The notes under the pieces are model-generated. The model did not search any database. It saw nothing but the letters and a program-made list of their open reading frames with translations, and was not told the origin of the DNA. Shown piece after piece: positions 32,294-40,282 of a stretch of DNA of 64,000 nt. Each line of letters starts with the position of its first letter. Positions within the stretch are counted from its first letter, which is position 1. Origin of the DNA: Escherichia phage vB_EcoM-ZQ3; the sequence record MW630116.1; one strand, 5' to 3'. The translations under genes and the position numbers were made by a program.

Positions 32294-32301
32294 TATAAAT
32301 A
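32294..32301 (+). promoter_or_regulatory. late promoter TATAAATA for gene 4
   Basis: exact TATAAATA 27 nt upstream of gene 4 ATG. Confidence 0.5.
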
Positions 32302-36199: not shown

Positions 36200-36463
36200 A
36201 TGAAAACGTATAAAGAATTTATCGCTGAATCTCAATCTTCTACTCTGTCAGAGAACTACGAATCATTCTCTTACAACAACGACCATGCAATGTTCTACGA
36301 CCGAAACATCGGTACTTATGTCCATGTGTGGGGTGTTAAAGATGGTAACGTAGTTGTTAAGAAAAACTCTAAAGAAGGCAATGGTCGTGGCCAGGTAAAA
36401 ATTACCAGCAAGAAAGCTATCCAAGCTTACGTCGATTATGTTAAACGCGAAGCTGGTATTTAA
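36200..36463 (+). CDS. internal protein-like small protein with capsid-targeting N-terminus
   Basis: 87 aa from MKTYKEFIAE-SQSS; gp21-type cleavage context after Glu10. Confidence 0.6.
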   Translation: MKTYKEFIAESQSSTLSENYESFSYNNDHAMFYDRNIGTYVHVWGVKDGNVVVKKNSKEGNGRGQVKITSKKAIQAYVDYVKREAGI

Positions 36464-36465
36464 TA

Positions 36466-36505
36466 GTTTACATGATGATAGGACTATGTTATAGTAGTCC
36501 TATCA
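36466..36505 (+). promoter_or_regulatory. early promoter cassette with palindrome
   Basis: near-identical copy of cassette at 36134. Confidence 0.5.
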
Positions 36506-36525
36506 AAACATGAGAGGATAATAAA

Positions 36526-36711
36526 ATGAAACGCGCTGAACTGATTCGTAATGTTGCTGTAGTAATTGCTTCAATGGCTTTTAGTTTTTCGATGTTTGTA
36601 GGATTCATTTGTGGACTACTGACGACAACCGAAAACTCTATCTCATTGGTAGTGGCATTTCTAATCGGCTTAATCGCCATCGTTATGGATAAAATTGCAA
36701 AAGGTGAGTAA
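36526..36711 (+). CDS. small membrane protein (two predicted TM helices)
   Basis: 61 aa, hydrophobic; GAGAGGA RBS. Confidence 0.5.
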   Translation: MKRAELIRNVAVVIASMAFSFSMFVGFICGLLTTTENSISLVVAFLIGLIAIVMDKIAKGE

Positions 36712-36712
36712 A

Positions 36713-37075
36713 ATGAAATATCATGTATATGCTGATTTTGAAGCTAATCCTTCTAAAGACCCTGATTGTCGTTTGTTACGTGAACCGTTTGATTCAGCCA
36801 CAGAAGCATGGCACTGGATTAAATCTAAATCACCCGGTTATATGTTCTTTGAAGTAGTCGATGACAATGGTGCACTGCATCCAGCCCCTACGGAAACTAT
36901 TAATTTCCTTCTGTTTGCTGGTTATGAATACTATCCTTATGGTGGTATCGACGACCTTTACGCTAAAGGTAAAACTGTCGAAGCTCTTCGTGAAATATAT
37001 AAGAACGCTGAAGAAAATTTCGACTGGTACCATATTGTTAATGCCCATACCTTTGAAGTGGTGGAACATTCATGA
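36713..37075 (+). CDS. hypothetical protein
   Basis: 120 aa from MKYHVYADF; RBS AAGGTGAG; start overlaps upstream stop. Confidence 0.5.
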   Translation: MKYHVYADFEANPSKDPDCRLLREPFDSATEAWHWIKSKSPGYMFFEVVDDNGALHPAPTETINFLLFAGYEYYPYGGIDDLYAKGKTVEALREIYKNAEENFDWYHIVNAHTFEVVEHS

Positions 37076-37362
37076 TTCTTTATGCTAAAGTAAAATCTGT
37101 TGAGAATGGTTATGAAAGCGATCAGCAAGCAGCTAAAGCATTGGTCAATGATTACGGTATTTTGACTAACTTTGAAGTTGAAAAAGTTTACATCGACCGT
37201 TCATCTTCGCAGGTTAAATTACTCTGGGAAGACGGTAAATTTAATAGCGTGAATTTTGATTTCTTTATTGAAACAGAAAAAGGTCCTCTTGAATATGATA
37301 TTTTCAAGAATCCTTTGAAATTACGTTGCATTGAATATAATTACATTAATATGGTACGGTGA
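37072..37362 (+). CDS. hypothetical protein
   Basis: 96 aa; ATGA overlap with upstream gene. Confidence 0.5.
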   Translation: MILYAKVKSVENGYESDQQAAKALVNDYGILTNFEVEKVYIDRSSSQVKLLWEDGKFNSVNFDFFIETEKGPLEYDIFKNPLKLRCIEYNYINMVR

Positions 37363-37366
37363 GTAA

Positions 37367-37882
37367 ATGAATATTTGTTTAGGCAGTACAATTCCTAAGG
37401 GCTACGTAATTGATGTCACTACCTATGAAAATGATGGTGACAACTATAAAACCAAAACATTGTTTGAAGTGGAAGAGCATGAGCTCCAACAGTTTAAATA
37501 TCTCTTGAAGAAATTTAAGAGCCGTCATTCTAGCACTAAAGCCGAACGTTATTGCGGTAATACACCATTCAGTGATTGTTCGCTTTTAATCTATGAATAC
37601 TTGGTTGAAGGACTGTTCTCAGACCAGCTTTATCCAGAATTCATTAAAAAGGTCTTTGGTATCGAAGTTGACCTTGGTGACAAATCCGAAGAAGATGAAA
37701 CACGTGTATTCGACCTATTCTTTGAGAGCGGAGATGAGATATCTCAAGGACTTATTGATATTCTTGGCTATGCTTCTGAATACTATGATTACGATTTCTT
37801 GCGTGTAGTTGAACGTGTTGAATTCGCTTATATTGAAGAAGAAATTGTTTTGCCGACTGTTAAAATGATTGATTTGCTTTAA
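37367..37882 (+). CDS. hypothetical protein
   Basis: 171 aa, acidic. Confidence 0.55.
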   Translation: MNICLGSTIPKGYVIDVTTYENDGDNYKTKTLFEVEEHELQQFKYLLKKFKSRHSSTKAERYCGNTPFSDCSLLIYEYLVEGLFSDQLYPEFIKKVFGIEVDLGDKSEEDETRVFDLFFESGDEISQGLIDILGYASEYYDYDFLRVVERVEFAYIEEEIVLPTVKMIDLL

Positions 37883-37961
37883 GAATTATGTGTTATTATT
37901 AATTCATACCCTCTATTACCAAAGGTGCTCTAAAGTGCCTTTCATAATAGAAAGTTATTAA

Positions 37962-38036
37962 GGCCCTGTAGCTCAATGGGAGAGCTGTCAGCTCATAACT
38001 GATAGGTAGCTGGATCGAAACCAGCCAGGGTCACCA
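37962..38036 (+). tRNA. tRNA, anticodon CAT (Met or Ile2/lysidine)
   Basis: hand-folded cloverleaf: acceptor GGCCCTG/CAGGGTC, D stem GCTC/GAGC, anticodon loop CTCATAA, T arm GCTGG-ATCGAAA-CCAGC, encoded CCA. Confidence 0.8.
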
Positions 38037-38042
38037 AACAAA

Positions 38043-38114
38043 TGGTGCATCGTATAAAGGTTATTACGGGGAGCTGTTAACTCCTTTATCTTGGTTCGAG
38101 TCCAAGTGCGCCAG
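38043..38114 (+). tRNA. tRNA-Asn (anticodon GTT)
   Basis: acceptor TGGTGCA/TGCGCCA, anticodon stem GGGAG/CTCCT loop CTGTTAA, T arm CTTGG-TTCGAGT-CCAAG; D stem only 3 bp; no encoded CCA. Confidence 0.65.
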
Positions 38115-38188
38115 TAATTTAAACGAAGTAAATTAAGTGCTCTATCCAAATAATAAATACTCCTATATTTTATAGGAGATAATTGGTA

Positions 38189-38854
38189 ATGAGCATTTGT
38201 AAACATTGTAATATGGAATTTGATATTTCTAATAAACCTAAAGGATGGATGGCTAACCACACTAGATGGTGTAAATCCAACCCTAAATTGGAATTGTATA
38301 AAGAAAGTTCTAAATCAGCCATTGCAGCAATGAATAAAGCACGTATAGCTTCAGGTAATTTAAACCAGTATGTTGTATCTAAAAAGACTGGTGTCCCTGT
38401 AGTAATTTCGGAAGAGACTAGACAAAAATTGTCAGCCGCTTCATTAGGTAGAGAACACTCTGAGGAATCTAGAATAAAAATATCTAATGCTCGGAAAAAA
38501 TGGTTGAATGAAAACCCTGATAAACATCCTTGGAAGAAAAATACAAAATTTAAATCTGTGCCTTGTGAATTTTTGAAATCTAAATTAATAGAAAACGGAA
38601 TTTCATTTATTGAAGAATACCAACCGGTTAAAAACCGAGCGTATTGCACGGATATTGCTTTAATAGATAAAAAGATTATTATTGAAGTTAATGGAAACCA
38701 ACATTACTCCAATCCTAAGAAAAAGATTTTGGCCCCTTATTATAAAGAACGCCATGATATTATAAAATCATTAGGATGGGAAATATATGAACTTCATTAT
38801 GCTGAAGTTTATAAAGAAGATATTGTAAATAATTTAATTGCCTCTATAGTGTAA
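38189..38854 (+). CDS. putative homing endonuclease (Zn-finger / NUMOD3-like / C-terminal Vsr-DUF559-like nuclease domain)
   Basis: 222 aa from MSICKHC; CxxC...H..C N-terminus, NUMOD3-like ETRQKLSAASLGREHSEESRIKISNARKKW, C-terminal IIEVNGNQHY...D...GWEIYEL; located in tRNA cluster like T4 segB. Confidence 0.6.
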   Translation: MSICKHCNMEFDISNKPKGWMANHTRWCKSNPKLELYKESSKSAIAAMNKARIASGNLNQYVVSKKTGVPVVISEETRQKLSAASLGREHSEESRIKISNARKKWLNENPDKHPWKKNTKFKSVPCEFLKSKLIENGISFIEEYQPVKNRAYCTDIALIDKKIIIEVNGNQHYSNPKKKILAPYYKERHDIIKSLGWEIYELHYAEVYKEDIVNNLIASIV

Positions 38855-38915
38855 TGGATAGCATATAATCGTTCTAAGGTTAATGGTGAGAGTTCAAATC
38901 TTTCTAGAGGCACCA
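38840..38915 (+). tRNA. tRNA-Arg (anticodon TCT)
   Basis: acceptor GCCTCTA/TAGAGGC, anticodon stem TAATC/GGTTA loop GTTCTAA, T arm GAGAG-TTCAAAT-CTTTC, encoded CCA; overlaps last 15 nt of upstream ORF. Confidence 0.8.
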
Positions 38916-38933
38916 ACTTTAAGTGAGGAAAAT

Positions 38934-39278
38934 ATGAAAGGCAATATTTATTTGGTAGTTCATGATTTAACGTTTTATTTTAACGAACAGGATACAGTTA
39001 TTTCCGACCGGTTGATTAATTCGTTATATCAACACGCTGATTACGTTTATTTTCAAAATGAATTCGGACATTGGAAGTTTCTTAAAAACCGTTCCGGGTT
39101 AACTAGTTTTGAATACTTTGACCGTAAAGACCTTTTAAACGAAATTCCATTACAACATCGGTTCCAGAAACGCGAATCACTATACTATTGTCGCCATATA
39201 CCAAATGCTGAATGTGTTTATGAAGCGATTAATCTATGGCGTCGGCGTCGAGAGCAAATTGATGATATGCCAAAATAA
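38934..39278 (+). CDS. hypothetical protein
   Basis: 114 aa from MKGNIYLVVHDL; RBS GAGGAA; longer ORF start lies inside tRNA-Arg. Confidence 0.5.
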   Translation: MKGNIYLVVHDLTFYFNEQDTVISDRLINSLYQHADYVYFQNEFGHWKFLKNRSGLTSFEYFDRKDLLNEIPLQHRFQKRESLYYCRHIPNAECVYEAINLWRRRREQIDDMPK

Positions 39279-39279
39279 G

Positions 39280-39588
39280 AAGCCGGGTCGCTACCGGCAA
39301 GACGTCGGACTGATGTTCCCTGAGTAAGGATTGGTCTTAATAAATCTTTACGATTTGTTAATACCCCCTTACATCACAGCAGAAACGGCGCACAGAATTA
39401 TCGATTCGAGGAAATATCTTTGCCGTAAGCCGAGTAGCGTTTTTGACGGAACGTTCGGATATGGTCGAGATATGGCCTTTTAAAAATATTGAGTAGCGTC
39501 AACTGCTTAATAACCGGGTTCGAATCCCGGCGTTTCGTACAAACACTTACCTAGTAGGTGGAAACCCGACAAGGTTGCCGCAAGGCAT
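39280..39588 (+). ncRNA. ORF-free structured region, candidate small stable RNA(s) or decayed tRNA genes
   Basis: about 310 nt without ORF; hairpin GCCGG-GTCGCTA-CCGGC at 39282-39298; tRNA-like T arm CCGGG-TTCGAAT-CCCGG (39514-39530) with acceptor-like pairing CGGAACG/CGTTTCG but no canonical D/anticodon arms. Confidence 0.3.
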
Positions 39589-39617
39589 AGCCCCTTCCGA
39601 AAGGTTGGGGCTTTTTT
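39589..39617 (+). terminator. intrinsic terminator
   Basis: AGCCCCTTCC-GAAA-GGTTGGGGCT followed by TTTTTT. Confidence 0.55.
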
Positions 39618-39618
39618 G

Positions 39619-39626
39619 TATAAATA
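39619..39626 (+). promoter_or_regulatory. late promoter TATAAATA upstream of IP-like gene
   Basis: exact TATAAATA 36 nt upstream of ATG 39662. Confidence 0.45.
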
Positions 39627-39661
39627 TAGTAAACAATAAACCTACTTTCTAAGGACCATCA

Positions 39662-40282
39662 ATGTATACTTTTAATGAATTTTTAGCCGAAACGGAAGTA
39701 ATCACCGAAGCCGGCGTACGTATGACAAAAGAGAAATGGCAAGCTGCTTACGATGCTATTTCTGGTACAAAAACTAGTACAGAGTTTTTCAAAAACGTTC
39801 AAGCCATGTACGGTATCGACACTTCTAGCCAAAAAGAATATTACAGAGCTTCTAAAGCATTCAAAGATATTGTTAGTGGTGGTGTTTCTGCTAAATCGGG
39901 TTCGCCTAAAGTAAAACCTGCTCCTACCATTCCTAAACCTGCGACCCCTAAAGCAAAACCTGAGCCTAAGCCTGAAGTAAAAGCAACTCCTAAAGCTCCT
40001 GCTCTTAAGTTTGATACTTCTAGCCTGGAAAAAAAATATAAACAACTATCTTCGCTTGTTCGTGATATTGAATCCGATACATCTTCACTCGTTCGTGAAT
40101 TCAATATTCTTCGTAATGGCCAACATATCAACAACCTTGATACTCCAGACCTTTATCGTCTTTATTTGACTATCGAAGGTTTGAAGTATACTCAACCACT
40201 TCACGATGCGATTAAAGAAAAACTTCGTCAGGCAGGTCGTTTGGCTGCTGACGCTGCTCAGTATGCAAAAACTCGTAAGTAA
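39662..40282 (+). CDS. internal protein-like protein with capsid-targeting N-terminus and Pro/Lys-rich linker
   Basis: 206 aa; N-terminus MYTFNEFLAE-TE (variant of MKTYQEFIAE); low-complexity KPAPTIPKPATPKAKPEPKPEVK segment. Confidence 0.55.
   Translation: MYTFNEFLAETEVITEAGVRMTKEKWQAAYDAISGTKTSTEFFKNVQAMYGIDTSSQKEYYRASKAFKDIVSGGVSAKSGSPKVKPAPTIPKPATPKAKPEPKPEVKATPKAPALKFDTSSLEKKYKQLSSLVRDIESDTSSLVREFNILRNGQHINNLDTPDLYRLYLTIEGLKYTQPLHDAIKEKLRQAGRLAADAAQYAKTRK

Follow-up and report, generated by a model that had tools for sequence, protein, structure and literature searches.

A Vsr-like endonuclease gene joined to tRNA-Arg in a T4-like coliphage is probably a homing cassette that replaces a resident tRNA allele

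Results

The gene and its overlap with tRNA-Arg

The 64,000-nucleotide stretch of Escherichia phage vB_EcoM-ZQ3 (sequence record MW630116.1) analyzed here, called the window throughout, belongs to a Mosigvirus-like relative of phage T4. One of its open reading frames (ORF), on the + strand, extends from an ATG at position 38189 to a TAA at 38852–38854 and runs into the 5' end of a tRNA-Arg(TCT) gene. The ORF is likely to encode a free-standing Vsr-like (EDxHD-type) homing endonuclease that drives a cassette by which the resident tRNA-Arg(UCU) of related phages is replaced with the cassette's own allele. The cassette of ~0.9–1 kb comprises a tRNA-Asn, a 5' untranslated region (UTR), the ORF, and a T4-type tRNA-Arg(UCU) joined to the 3' end of the ORF. 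An earlier sequence-only reading of the window had described an endonuclease-like gene overlapping tRNA-Arg; a mobile cassette replacing the resident tRNA-Arg is an aspect absent from it.

Counted from the ATG, the protein has 221 amino acids, one fewer than the 222 given in the sequence-only reading. An alternative in-frame TTG at 38183 would yield 223 amino acids; the motif MS(I/V)CKHC at the ATG is the N-terminus of all homologs. The motifs quoted earlier (CKHC...HTRWC, IIEVNGNQHY, and GWEIYEL) were all found in the ORF. ARAGORN placed tRNA-Arg(TCT) at 38840–38915, and its 5' end at 38840 was confirmed independently by Infernal/Rfam (56.3 bits, E 8e-11). Both programs thus uphold the 15-nt overlap reported before, and the stop codon lies inside the tRNA gene and not upstream of it. 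The dual-coding segment (38840–38854, + strand; GCC TCT ATA GTG TAA) holds codons 218–221 (A-S-I-V) and the stop, and corresponds to tRNA-Arg positions 1–15. Specifically, it spans the 5' strand of the acceptor stem, U8, A9, and the start of the D-arm, in which the stop occupies positions 13–15. An antisense Rfam match to "Plastid-ycf2 5'UTR" (38840–38913, – strand) reached 25.7 bits against a gathering score of 65.7, and this reading was dismissed as a sub-threshold chance match.

The overlap is not peculiar to one sequence, because homologs and divergent metagenomic members have the same arrangement. The ORF extends into tRNA-Arg by 15 nt in a homolog of 83% identity and by 16 and 24 nt in homologs of 64% and 60% identity. 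Among divergent metagenomic members, overlaps with downstream tRNAs measure 15 nt for Arg(tct), 10 nt for Arg(acg), and 18 and 21 nt for Leu. The stop of such ORFs comes from the tRNA, either as TAG at U8-A9-G10 or as TAA in the D-loop.

Domain organization and predicted fold

Pfam matches to the protein were weak overall but coherent. DUF559 (PF04480) matched residues 151–210 with 21.4 bits (gathering score 20.6, E 2.4e-4). The profile comparison proposed with the earlier DUF559 assignment therefore ended above the threshold, by a small margin. The RAP domain (PF08373; 23.9 bits, E 4.3e-5) fell narrowly under its gathering score of 24.2, a near-match that reflects the common Vsr-like fold, and the MTES_1575 restriction-endonuclease-like domain was matched as well. 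NUMOD3 (PF07460) was found in two stretches with 18.9 bits (E 1.5e-3), under its gathering score of 20.4; the resemblance of the motifs is clear. Matches in PHROGs comprised one family of unknown function and several "homing endonuclease" families, and NCBIfam was without a model for the protein.

No GIY-YIG match was obtained in Pfam even at E values up to 10, whereas T4 SegB matched PF01541 (GIY-YIG) in the same kind of search. Likewise, there was no Pfam HNH match, and PHROG matches of that kind were weak only (phrog_559, E 4e-3). The protein is neither GIY-YIG nor HNH, and the earlier statement that it is no GIY-YIG protein like SegB holds.

Sequence searches of the PDB with the single protein and with a 65-sequence profile gave no nuclease, returning weak C2H2 zinc-finger matches to the N-terminus and spurious glycosylase and Suc1 matches. 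The fold was therefore established from the predicted structure. An AlphaFold2 model built on the 65-sequence alignment was confident (pLDDT 92.5) and shows a zinc-finger hairpin and helix, long helices including the two NUMOD3-like repeats, and then an alpha/beta domain. All structure matches of the model were Vsr or PD-(D/E)xK folds, and the top match was a proven DNA homing endonuclease. As judged from the model, the C-terminal nuclease domain has a Vsr-type fold.

The N-terminal domain (38198–38272, + strand) is a C2HC beta-beta-alpha zinc finger, in which a beta-hairpin and helix 20–27 of the model carry the ligands C4, C7, H24, and C28. These ligands are kept in 47–49 of the 49–55 aligned family sequences with a residue at those columns; C2H2-finger profiles match the N-terminus weakly (E 0.26). 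It is followed by two NUMOD3-type helices, SEETRQKLSAA and SEESRIKISNARKKW (38405–38506, + strand), assigned from Pfam and from model helices 75–85 and 92–108. Of the NUMOD3-like motifs claimed earlier, the two helices are thus present, while the Pfam score stayed below threshold. The Vsr/DUF559/RAP-fold nuclease domain occupies 38531–38851 (+ strand). This combination had been called an unusual domain mix. It is the normal architecture of NUMODs followed by a C-terminal Vsr-like nuclease (PMC2677866; PMC3239194), since free-standing Vsr-like endonucleases with tandem N-terminal NUMOD3 and with hairpins before the start codon have been described (Dassa 2009, PMC2677866).

Conserved residues and selection

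A database search found 131 relatives of the ORF, across which the C-terminal ~130 residues are ~50% identical. The N-termini of these relatives switch between zinc finger plus NUMOD3 and helix-turn-helix (HTH) modules. The residues W115, S123, K130, E143, D155, E166, N168, G169, H172, Y173, and L181 were invariant in the 65-sequence alignment.

In the homing endonuclease I-Bth0305I, the EDxHD residues E170, D196, N208, H213, and D222 correspond to E25, D51, H64, H69, and D97 of Vsr (Taylor 2011, PMC3239194). Judged by residue spacing, the equivalents in the ORF would be E127 (63 of 65 sequences), D155, N168, and H172 (65 of 65 each), and D190, which form the proposed catalytic set. The first four positions are at least 97% conserved; at the fifth, 44 of 65 sequences have Asp, six have Glu, and seven have Asn. 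The ratio of nonsynonymous to synonymous substitution rates (dN/dS) among ORF carriers was 0.055–0.2, which indicates a functional protein under purifying selection.

Replacement of the resident tRNA-Arg

Aligned with the ORF-less relatives JS09 and LNA2, the window loses homology at ...GGGTCACCAA, just past a tRNA-Met gene (37962–38036, + strand), and regains it at the ACCA (CCA) end of tRNA-Arg. The right border of the replaced block lies at 38912–38935 (+ strand), where homology to ORF-less relatives restarts at ACCAACTTTAAGTGAGG. Both JS09 and LNA2 have, 3 nt past tRNA-Met, a tRNA-Arg(TCT) that differs markedly in sequence. Since homology stops after tRNA-Met and restarts at ACCA, the block of tRNA-Asn, ORF, and tRNA-Arg replaces the resident tRNA-Arg. 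The first gene of the inserted block, tRNA-Asn(GTT) (38043–38114, + strand; ARAGORN; Rfam 53.6 bits), is missing from ORF-less Mosigvirus relatives such as JS09. An identical tRNA-Asn is found in the ORF-less Salmonella phages STP4-a and SEA1; it is therefore not strictly linked to the ORF.

The T4-type tRNA-Arg(TCT) allele (38840–38915, + strand; ARAGORN, Rfam) is co-inherited with the ORF. A blastn search of 50,697 phage records found alleles at least ~85% identical to it in 11 records, all 11 with the ORF. It shares 70% identity with T4 tRNA-Arg and 60% with the resident allele of JS09. Two classes of tRNA-Arg(UCU) can be distinguished: a T4-type class (T4, the window, PSD2001, Klebsiella phage 17-11, and Providencia) with 67–91% mutual identity, and a resident-type class (JS09, Roth01, CJ20, and Berthold) with 69–90%. 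Identity between the classes is 55–68%. Metagenomic tRNA-Arg(tct) genes next to the ORF are too diverse for this scheme; they could not be sorted into either type, being only 50–75% identical to either class, and the two-class picture is therefore limited to Straboviridae.

The same exchange was found beyond Mosigvirus. In this genus and in Jiaodavirus, Gaprivervirus, and Gelderlandvirus, all ORF-less members have a resident-type tRNA-Arg at that place, with 77–92% mutual identity, and ORF carriers have a T4-type allele instead. In Jiaodavirus, the order is Arg(resident)-Leu-Thr in the ORF-less Roth01 and Leu*-ORF-Arg(T4 type)-Thr in the carrier 17-11. Similarly, in Gaprivervirus, Met-Arg(resident) in the ORF-less CJ20 corresponds to Met-ORF-Arg(T4 type) in the carrier PSD2001. 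The ORF-less Gelderlandvirus SEA1 has its identical tRNA-Asn, then 8 nt, then a resident-type tRNA-Arg.

Occurrence and mobility

The gene is mobile. Among 813 coliphage records that match the window flanks, the ORF occurs in only ~10 phages, and the presence/absence check suggested earlier thus revealed a polymorphic gene. It was also found in 5 of 176 Jiaodavirus records, in 3 of 66 Acinetobacter phage records, and in 1 of 740 records matching the flanks of PSD2001. The tract from 37956 to ~38955 is 97–100% identical to phage ELT1, with flanks of 65–89% identity. ELT1, classified as Tequatrovirus, has a full T4-type tRNA array in which tRNA-Asn and the ORF stand exactly at the position of T4 segB; the equivalence of the locus to that of segB, asserted earlier, is borne out by this placement.

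Damaged derivatives were also encountered. In PTE-Eco05 (L081), an extra A in the A-run at ~38378–38383 causes a +1 frameshift in an otherwise 99% identical copy; either the gene is decaying or the extra base is a sequencing error. DCP548 (L008:2152–2227) has a hybrid tRNA-Arg, the 5' two-thirds of which come from the ORF-linked allele and the part from the T-arm onward from the resident allele. The acceptor-stem halves of this hybrid are unpaired, no cloverleaf forms, and ARAGORN makes no call. It resembles a scar left when the cassette invaded and the phage lost its tRNA-Arg at this locus. Frameshifted and chimeric derivatives are typical of the homing-endonuclease life cycle.

A second recombinant with a T-arm junction was observed in AV109 (L087:1201–1400). 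There, the 3' part of tRNA-Asn differs from the T-arm onward and then joins DNA matching the window at ~39517; the ORF, tRNA-Arg, and the small gene downstream are missing.

tRNA context across the family

To the level of 50% identity and E values up to 1e-3, the family comprises ~2,650 clusters. A metagenome survey, in which IMG/VR was scanned with the family alignment, gave 68 loci; in 65 of them, tRNA genes lie no more than 2.5 kb away. Removal of duplicates left 53 loci, of which 39 have a tRNA within 130 nt of the ORF. The nearest tRNA was tRNA-Arg(tct) in 18 of these 39 (46%), compared to 27 of 285 local tRNAs (9.5%; binomial p ~3e-9, ignoring shared ancestry). Three geometries were seen: tRNA-Arg 17–120 nt upstream of the ORF, approximately the length of the ORF 5' UTR (including Providencia and Rhizobium phages); a same-strand tRNA-Arg abutting or overlapping the ORF 3' end; and a convergent tRNA-Arg abutting the ORF end. 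tRNA-Arg is not the neighbour in every lineage; the ORF of Acinetobacter phages is flanked by tRNA-Asn and tRNA-Ser. This lineage was examined for replacement of tRNA-Arg as well, which was not obviously the case.

A scan of cellular genomes of 185,579 species found 11 loci, 9 of them with tRNAs nearby. Because there are only 11, all on contigs of metagenome-assembled genomes, they give no evidence for a cellular reservoir, and the family is essentially viral.

A remote homolog (27% identity) was located in Citrobacter phage CkP1 (Karamvirus, L088:2498–3133). It lies within a large tRNA cluster, which ruled out the nrdA-nrdB slot, the reported location of Hef, for this homolog. Several further small ORFs abut or overlap tRNAs in the CkP1 cluster. 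At the tRNA locus where phi1_092060, AB-Navy1, and AB-Navy97 carry the Vsr-like ORF, the Acinetobacter phages Kimel, Octan, and Meroveus (H145–H148) have a gene annotated as "Seg-like homing endonuclease". Endonuclease families appear to alternate in one Acinetobacter slot, as segB and the ORF do in T-even phages.

Expression signals

RNA folding revealed a three-tier hairpin in the 5' UTR (38134–38199, + strand). Its outer stem (38134–38142 with 38191–38199) covers the G of the AUG and codons 2–4, the middle stem pairs 38146–38149 with 38183–38186, and the inner stem (38160–38167 with 38171–38178) sequesters the Shine-Dalgarno (SD) sequence AGGAG (38174–38178, + strand), located 10 nt upstream of the ATG. 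The free energy was –19.9 kcal/mol (z –3.99), and none of 200 shuffled sequences folded as well. Hairpins of homologs, including those of Providencia and Acinetobacter phages, differ in sequence and fold alike (z –4.2 to –5.6).

A late-promoter-like box, AATAAATA, was read from the sequence at 38152–38159 (+ strand), inside the hairpin and one base off the T4 late consensus TATAAATA. The exact consensus is present in the 5' UTR of six more distant homologs (two from Klebsiella, and those of PSD2001, DCP548, Providencia, and Acinetobacter), where it sits inside the structure just 5' of the SD-sequestering stem. A sigma-70 promoter scan of 36400–39700 found no more sites than in shuffled sequence. 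The 5' UTR of the ORF matches the control of T-even homing endonucleases, in which a hairpin sequesters the ribosome binding site (RBS) and holds a promoter box. For I-TevI, I-TevII, I-TevIII, segB, and Aeh1 mobE, read-through transcripts are blocked in translation, and late transcripts starting in the hairpin are translated (PMC2988022; PMC2330249). Late-promoter use is predicted for AATAAATA by analogy.

Discussion

Proposed mechanism and alternative explanations

The findings fit the following course of events. The C2HC zinc finger and the two NUMOD3 helices would bind DNA, and the C-terminal Vsr/DUF559-fold domain would cut it. In a mixed infection, the enzyme would cleave the genome of an ORF-less relative within or beside its resident-type tRNA-Arg(UCU) gene. 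Repair by recombination, with the genome of the carrier as template, would then copy the cassette into the cut relative, and the resident tRNA-Arg would be exchanged for the ORF and the divergent T4-type tRNA-Arg. The T4-type allele is presumably not cut and would maintain the phage's supply of tRNA-Arg(UCU). On read-through transcripts of the tRNA operon, the hairpin would hide the RBS and the AUG, so that the ORF would be silent while the tRNAs mature; late transcripts driven by the box within the hairpin would lack the 5' arms and be translatable.

Several points weigh against this account. The target of the endonuclease is deduced solely from which DNA is replaced, and the catalytic residues were mapped by spacing and not by residue-level superposition. 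Sequence profiles give no link between the ORF family and I-Bth0305I, and the fifth EDxHD residue is Asp in only 68% of members. The enrichment of tRNA-Arg(tct) is uncorrected for shared ancestry. Furthermore, the Providencia and Rhizobium phages and many metagenomic loci have tRNA-Arg(UCU) upstream and not downstream of the ORF, and no single simple target geometry therefore fits all members; in the Acinetobacter phages, tRNA-Arg is not obviously involved. Finally, the clade of the window has AATAAATA in place of the consensus TATAAATA, which makes the strength of its promoter uncertain.

Some of these observations would suit a homing endonuclease with another site, such as a generic tRNA feature, an inter-tRNA spacer, or the 5' edge of a tRNA, with replacement of tRNA-Arg as co-conversion. 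SegB itself recognizes GGTTCRANTCC and cuts many tRNA genes (PMC2330249). Besides the Acinetobacter position between tRNA-Asn and tRNA-Ser, family members abut many tRNAs, including those for Met, Leu, and Gln and other Arg isoacceptors, and both natural chimeras (DCP548 and AV109) are joined at a T-arm. Such T-arm junctions are, however, equally explicable as the longest microhomology between unrelated tRNAs. The nearest-neighbour enrichment is specific to tRNA-Arg(tct), and in four genera the replaced ORF-less segments have only the resident-type tRNA-Arg in common. The upstream neighbour varies (Met, Asn, or, in Jiaodavirus, an unannotated segment without a tRNA call), as does the downstream flank. 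We thus consider another site unlikely. A far less probable alternative is that the protein is of the RAP/FASTK type, which is likewise Vsr-like in fold, and aids, as an RNA-directed nuclease or RNA-binding factor, the processing of the phage tRNA precursor that contains its own gene. RAP is the best Pfam match by E value, and the family is nearly always within tRNA clusters. A processing factor should accompany the tRNAs, but of the close relatives that share this tRNA operon, ~1% carry the ORF. The NUMOD3 helices, the zinc finger, and the exchangeable HTH modules at the N-terminus are DNA-binding elements characteristic of homing endonucleases, and the nature of the top structural match points the same way. 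Allele replacement, a near-identical tract shared across genera, and decayed copies characterize a selfish mobile gene. Taken together, a homing endonuclease acting at the resident-type tRNA-Arg(UCU) gene is the explanation we favor.

The role of the 15-nt overlap is a separate question. RNase P cleavage at 38839/38840 would detach the last four codons and the stop, which are part of tRNA-Arg, and leave a non-stop mRNA, a further limit on enzyme output. Conversely, termination at 38852–38854 would require the ribosome to open the acceptor and D arms of tRNA-Arg. In T4, maturation of tRNA-Arg has been proposed to cut the segB mRNA at its stop codon (Brok-Volchanskaya 2008, PMC2330249). The competition between tRNA processing and translation on one RNA, postulated by the sequence-only reading, is thus plausible by analogy and not new. 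Whether the overlap has a real regulatory role is about evenly balanced. We give only slightly less weight to a neutral origin, in which the overlap is a by-product of flush packing, and hairpin and promoter alone set the output. The ORF runs to the first in-frame stop, and tRNAs supply one quickly. The last four residues are unconserved in non-overlapping homologs (...ERILL in Providencia, ...SELT in Acinetobacter), and the spacing between ORF end and tRNA start varies in the family between –38 and +100 nt, no value being preferred, so the overlap may be mainly a consequence of such packing. T4 segB, moreover, stops 5 nt before tRNA-Arg. Against neutrality, RNase P cannot produce the mature 5' end of the tRNA without cutting off the stop, and some effect on expression is hard to avoid. 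In addition, the overlap has been kept over 64% protein divergence with compensatory changes in the acceptor stem, and control of this type was proposed for segB (PMC2330249).

Comparison with known systems and significance

As the best explanation, drawing in part on the structural model, the ORF would act like SegB, as a tRNA-cluster homing endonuclease spreading with tRNA genes, but with the fold of I-Bth0305I. Both the ORF product and I-Bth0305I (PDB 3R3P) have N-terminal NUMOD-type DNA-binding modules and a C-terminal nuclease in the same order. Judged by residue spacing, they share Asn at the position of Vsr His64 (N168 here, N208 there) and the pattern D...N(x3-4)H. They differ in that a HMMER profile against the PDB detects no sequence-level match, in the ORF signature E-V-N-G-N-Q-H-Y, and in the incomplete conservation of D190. 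Furthermore, I-Bth0305I lies in a recA intron and has NUMOD2/HTH modules, whereas the ORF is free-standing in tRNA clusters and has a C2HC finger and NUMOD3.

With T4 SegB, the ORF shares the niche directly upstream of a T4-type tRNA-Arg, the spread along with neighbouring tRNA genes, the sequestration of SD and AUG in a hairpin, and an end abutting tRNA-Arg, the maturation of which is proposed to truncate the mRNA. The folds are unrelated, GIY-YIG for SegB and Vsr-like for the ORF. The segB stop precedes the tRNA, whereas the ORF stop lies 15 nt inside it. For SegB, a T-psi-C target in many tRNA genes is experimentally established, whereas that of the ORF is inferred.

Other relatives are more distant. 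Vsr is a mismatch-specific nicking repair enzyme with a Zn site and Trp-intercalation residues, and it gave no match to the ORF family in a profile search against PDB sequences. Most DUF559 proteins are bacterial and consist of a single stand-alone domain, and RAP proteins are organellar RNA-binding factors. The EDxHD family also takes in phage Hef-type enzymes (Taylor 2011, PMC3239194). In phage T5, the free-standing homing endonuclease genes F-TflI, F-TflII, and F-TflIV lie within the tRNA cluster (PMC2330249); going by this description, they share the niche, belong to the HNH family, and show no relationship to the ORF in sequence or fold. Literature searches, of incomplete coverage, found no paper on the ORF subfamily or its link to tRNA-Arg, which is weak evidence of novelty.

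The analysis assigns a probable function to a gene of T4-like phages (Escherichia, Klebsiella, Providencia, and Acinetobacter) that is labelled "hypothetical protein" or, wrongly, "HNH endonuclease". With the resident-type tRNA-Arg(UCU) gene, it also names a definite target that can be tested. It also indicates that one slot before tRNA-Arg is used by two unrelated nuclease families, GIY-YIG SegB and the Vsr-like ORF. As a second endonuclease family that moves or replaces phage tRNA genes, the ORF is relevant to the evolution of phage tRNA repertoires. Phage tRNA genes have been tied to escape from tRNA-cleaving host defences, and SegB was reported to amplify such loci (PMC13096335). A natural Vsr-like enzyme specific for 30–40 bp, with a modular zinc-finger and NUMOD3 reader, could furthermore interest enzyme engineers. 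A bolder and rather improbable extension is that the Vsr-like subfamily forms a dedicated lineage that targets tRNA genes, above all tRNA-Arg(UCU), across many phage groups unrelated to one another. Its members would each bring along, fused to the 3' end, a replacement tRNA immune to cleavage, swap tRNA alleles between phages, and have their output tied to RNase P via non-stop mRNA. Under this reading, anti-defence tRNA variants would be spread by the cassette if the linked alleles also differ in how sensitive they are to anticodon nucleases of the host.

Neighbouring features

The tRNA-Met(CAT) gene upstream of the cassette was called by ARAGORN and by Rfam (59 bits), falls within the tract nearly identical to ELT1, and occupies the position of T4 "tRNA-Ile". 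ARAGORN calls the annotated T4 tRNA-Ile (L011:1661–1734) Met(CAT) as well, and the "tRNA-Met" of the window is probably the counterpart of this T4 gene with anticodon CAT.

Downstream, an RB69ORF150c-like gene (~38935–39278) separates tRNA-Arg from a stretch at 39273–39617. The latter is 92% identical to the DNA directly after tRNA-Arg in PSD2001 (L007:2227–2560), which starts like T4 rnaD (aaaccggg...). No Rfam match was obtained for this stretch; counterparts of the small stable RNAs known from T4 as species 1 and 2 are probably encoded there.

In the whole window, TATAAATA occurs in 18 copies compared to 7.6 expected. Up to ~32.3 kb they lie on the – strand, with the exception of a single + copy at 32294; beyond this point they lie on the + strand. 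Late genes thus seem to change orientation near 32 kb.

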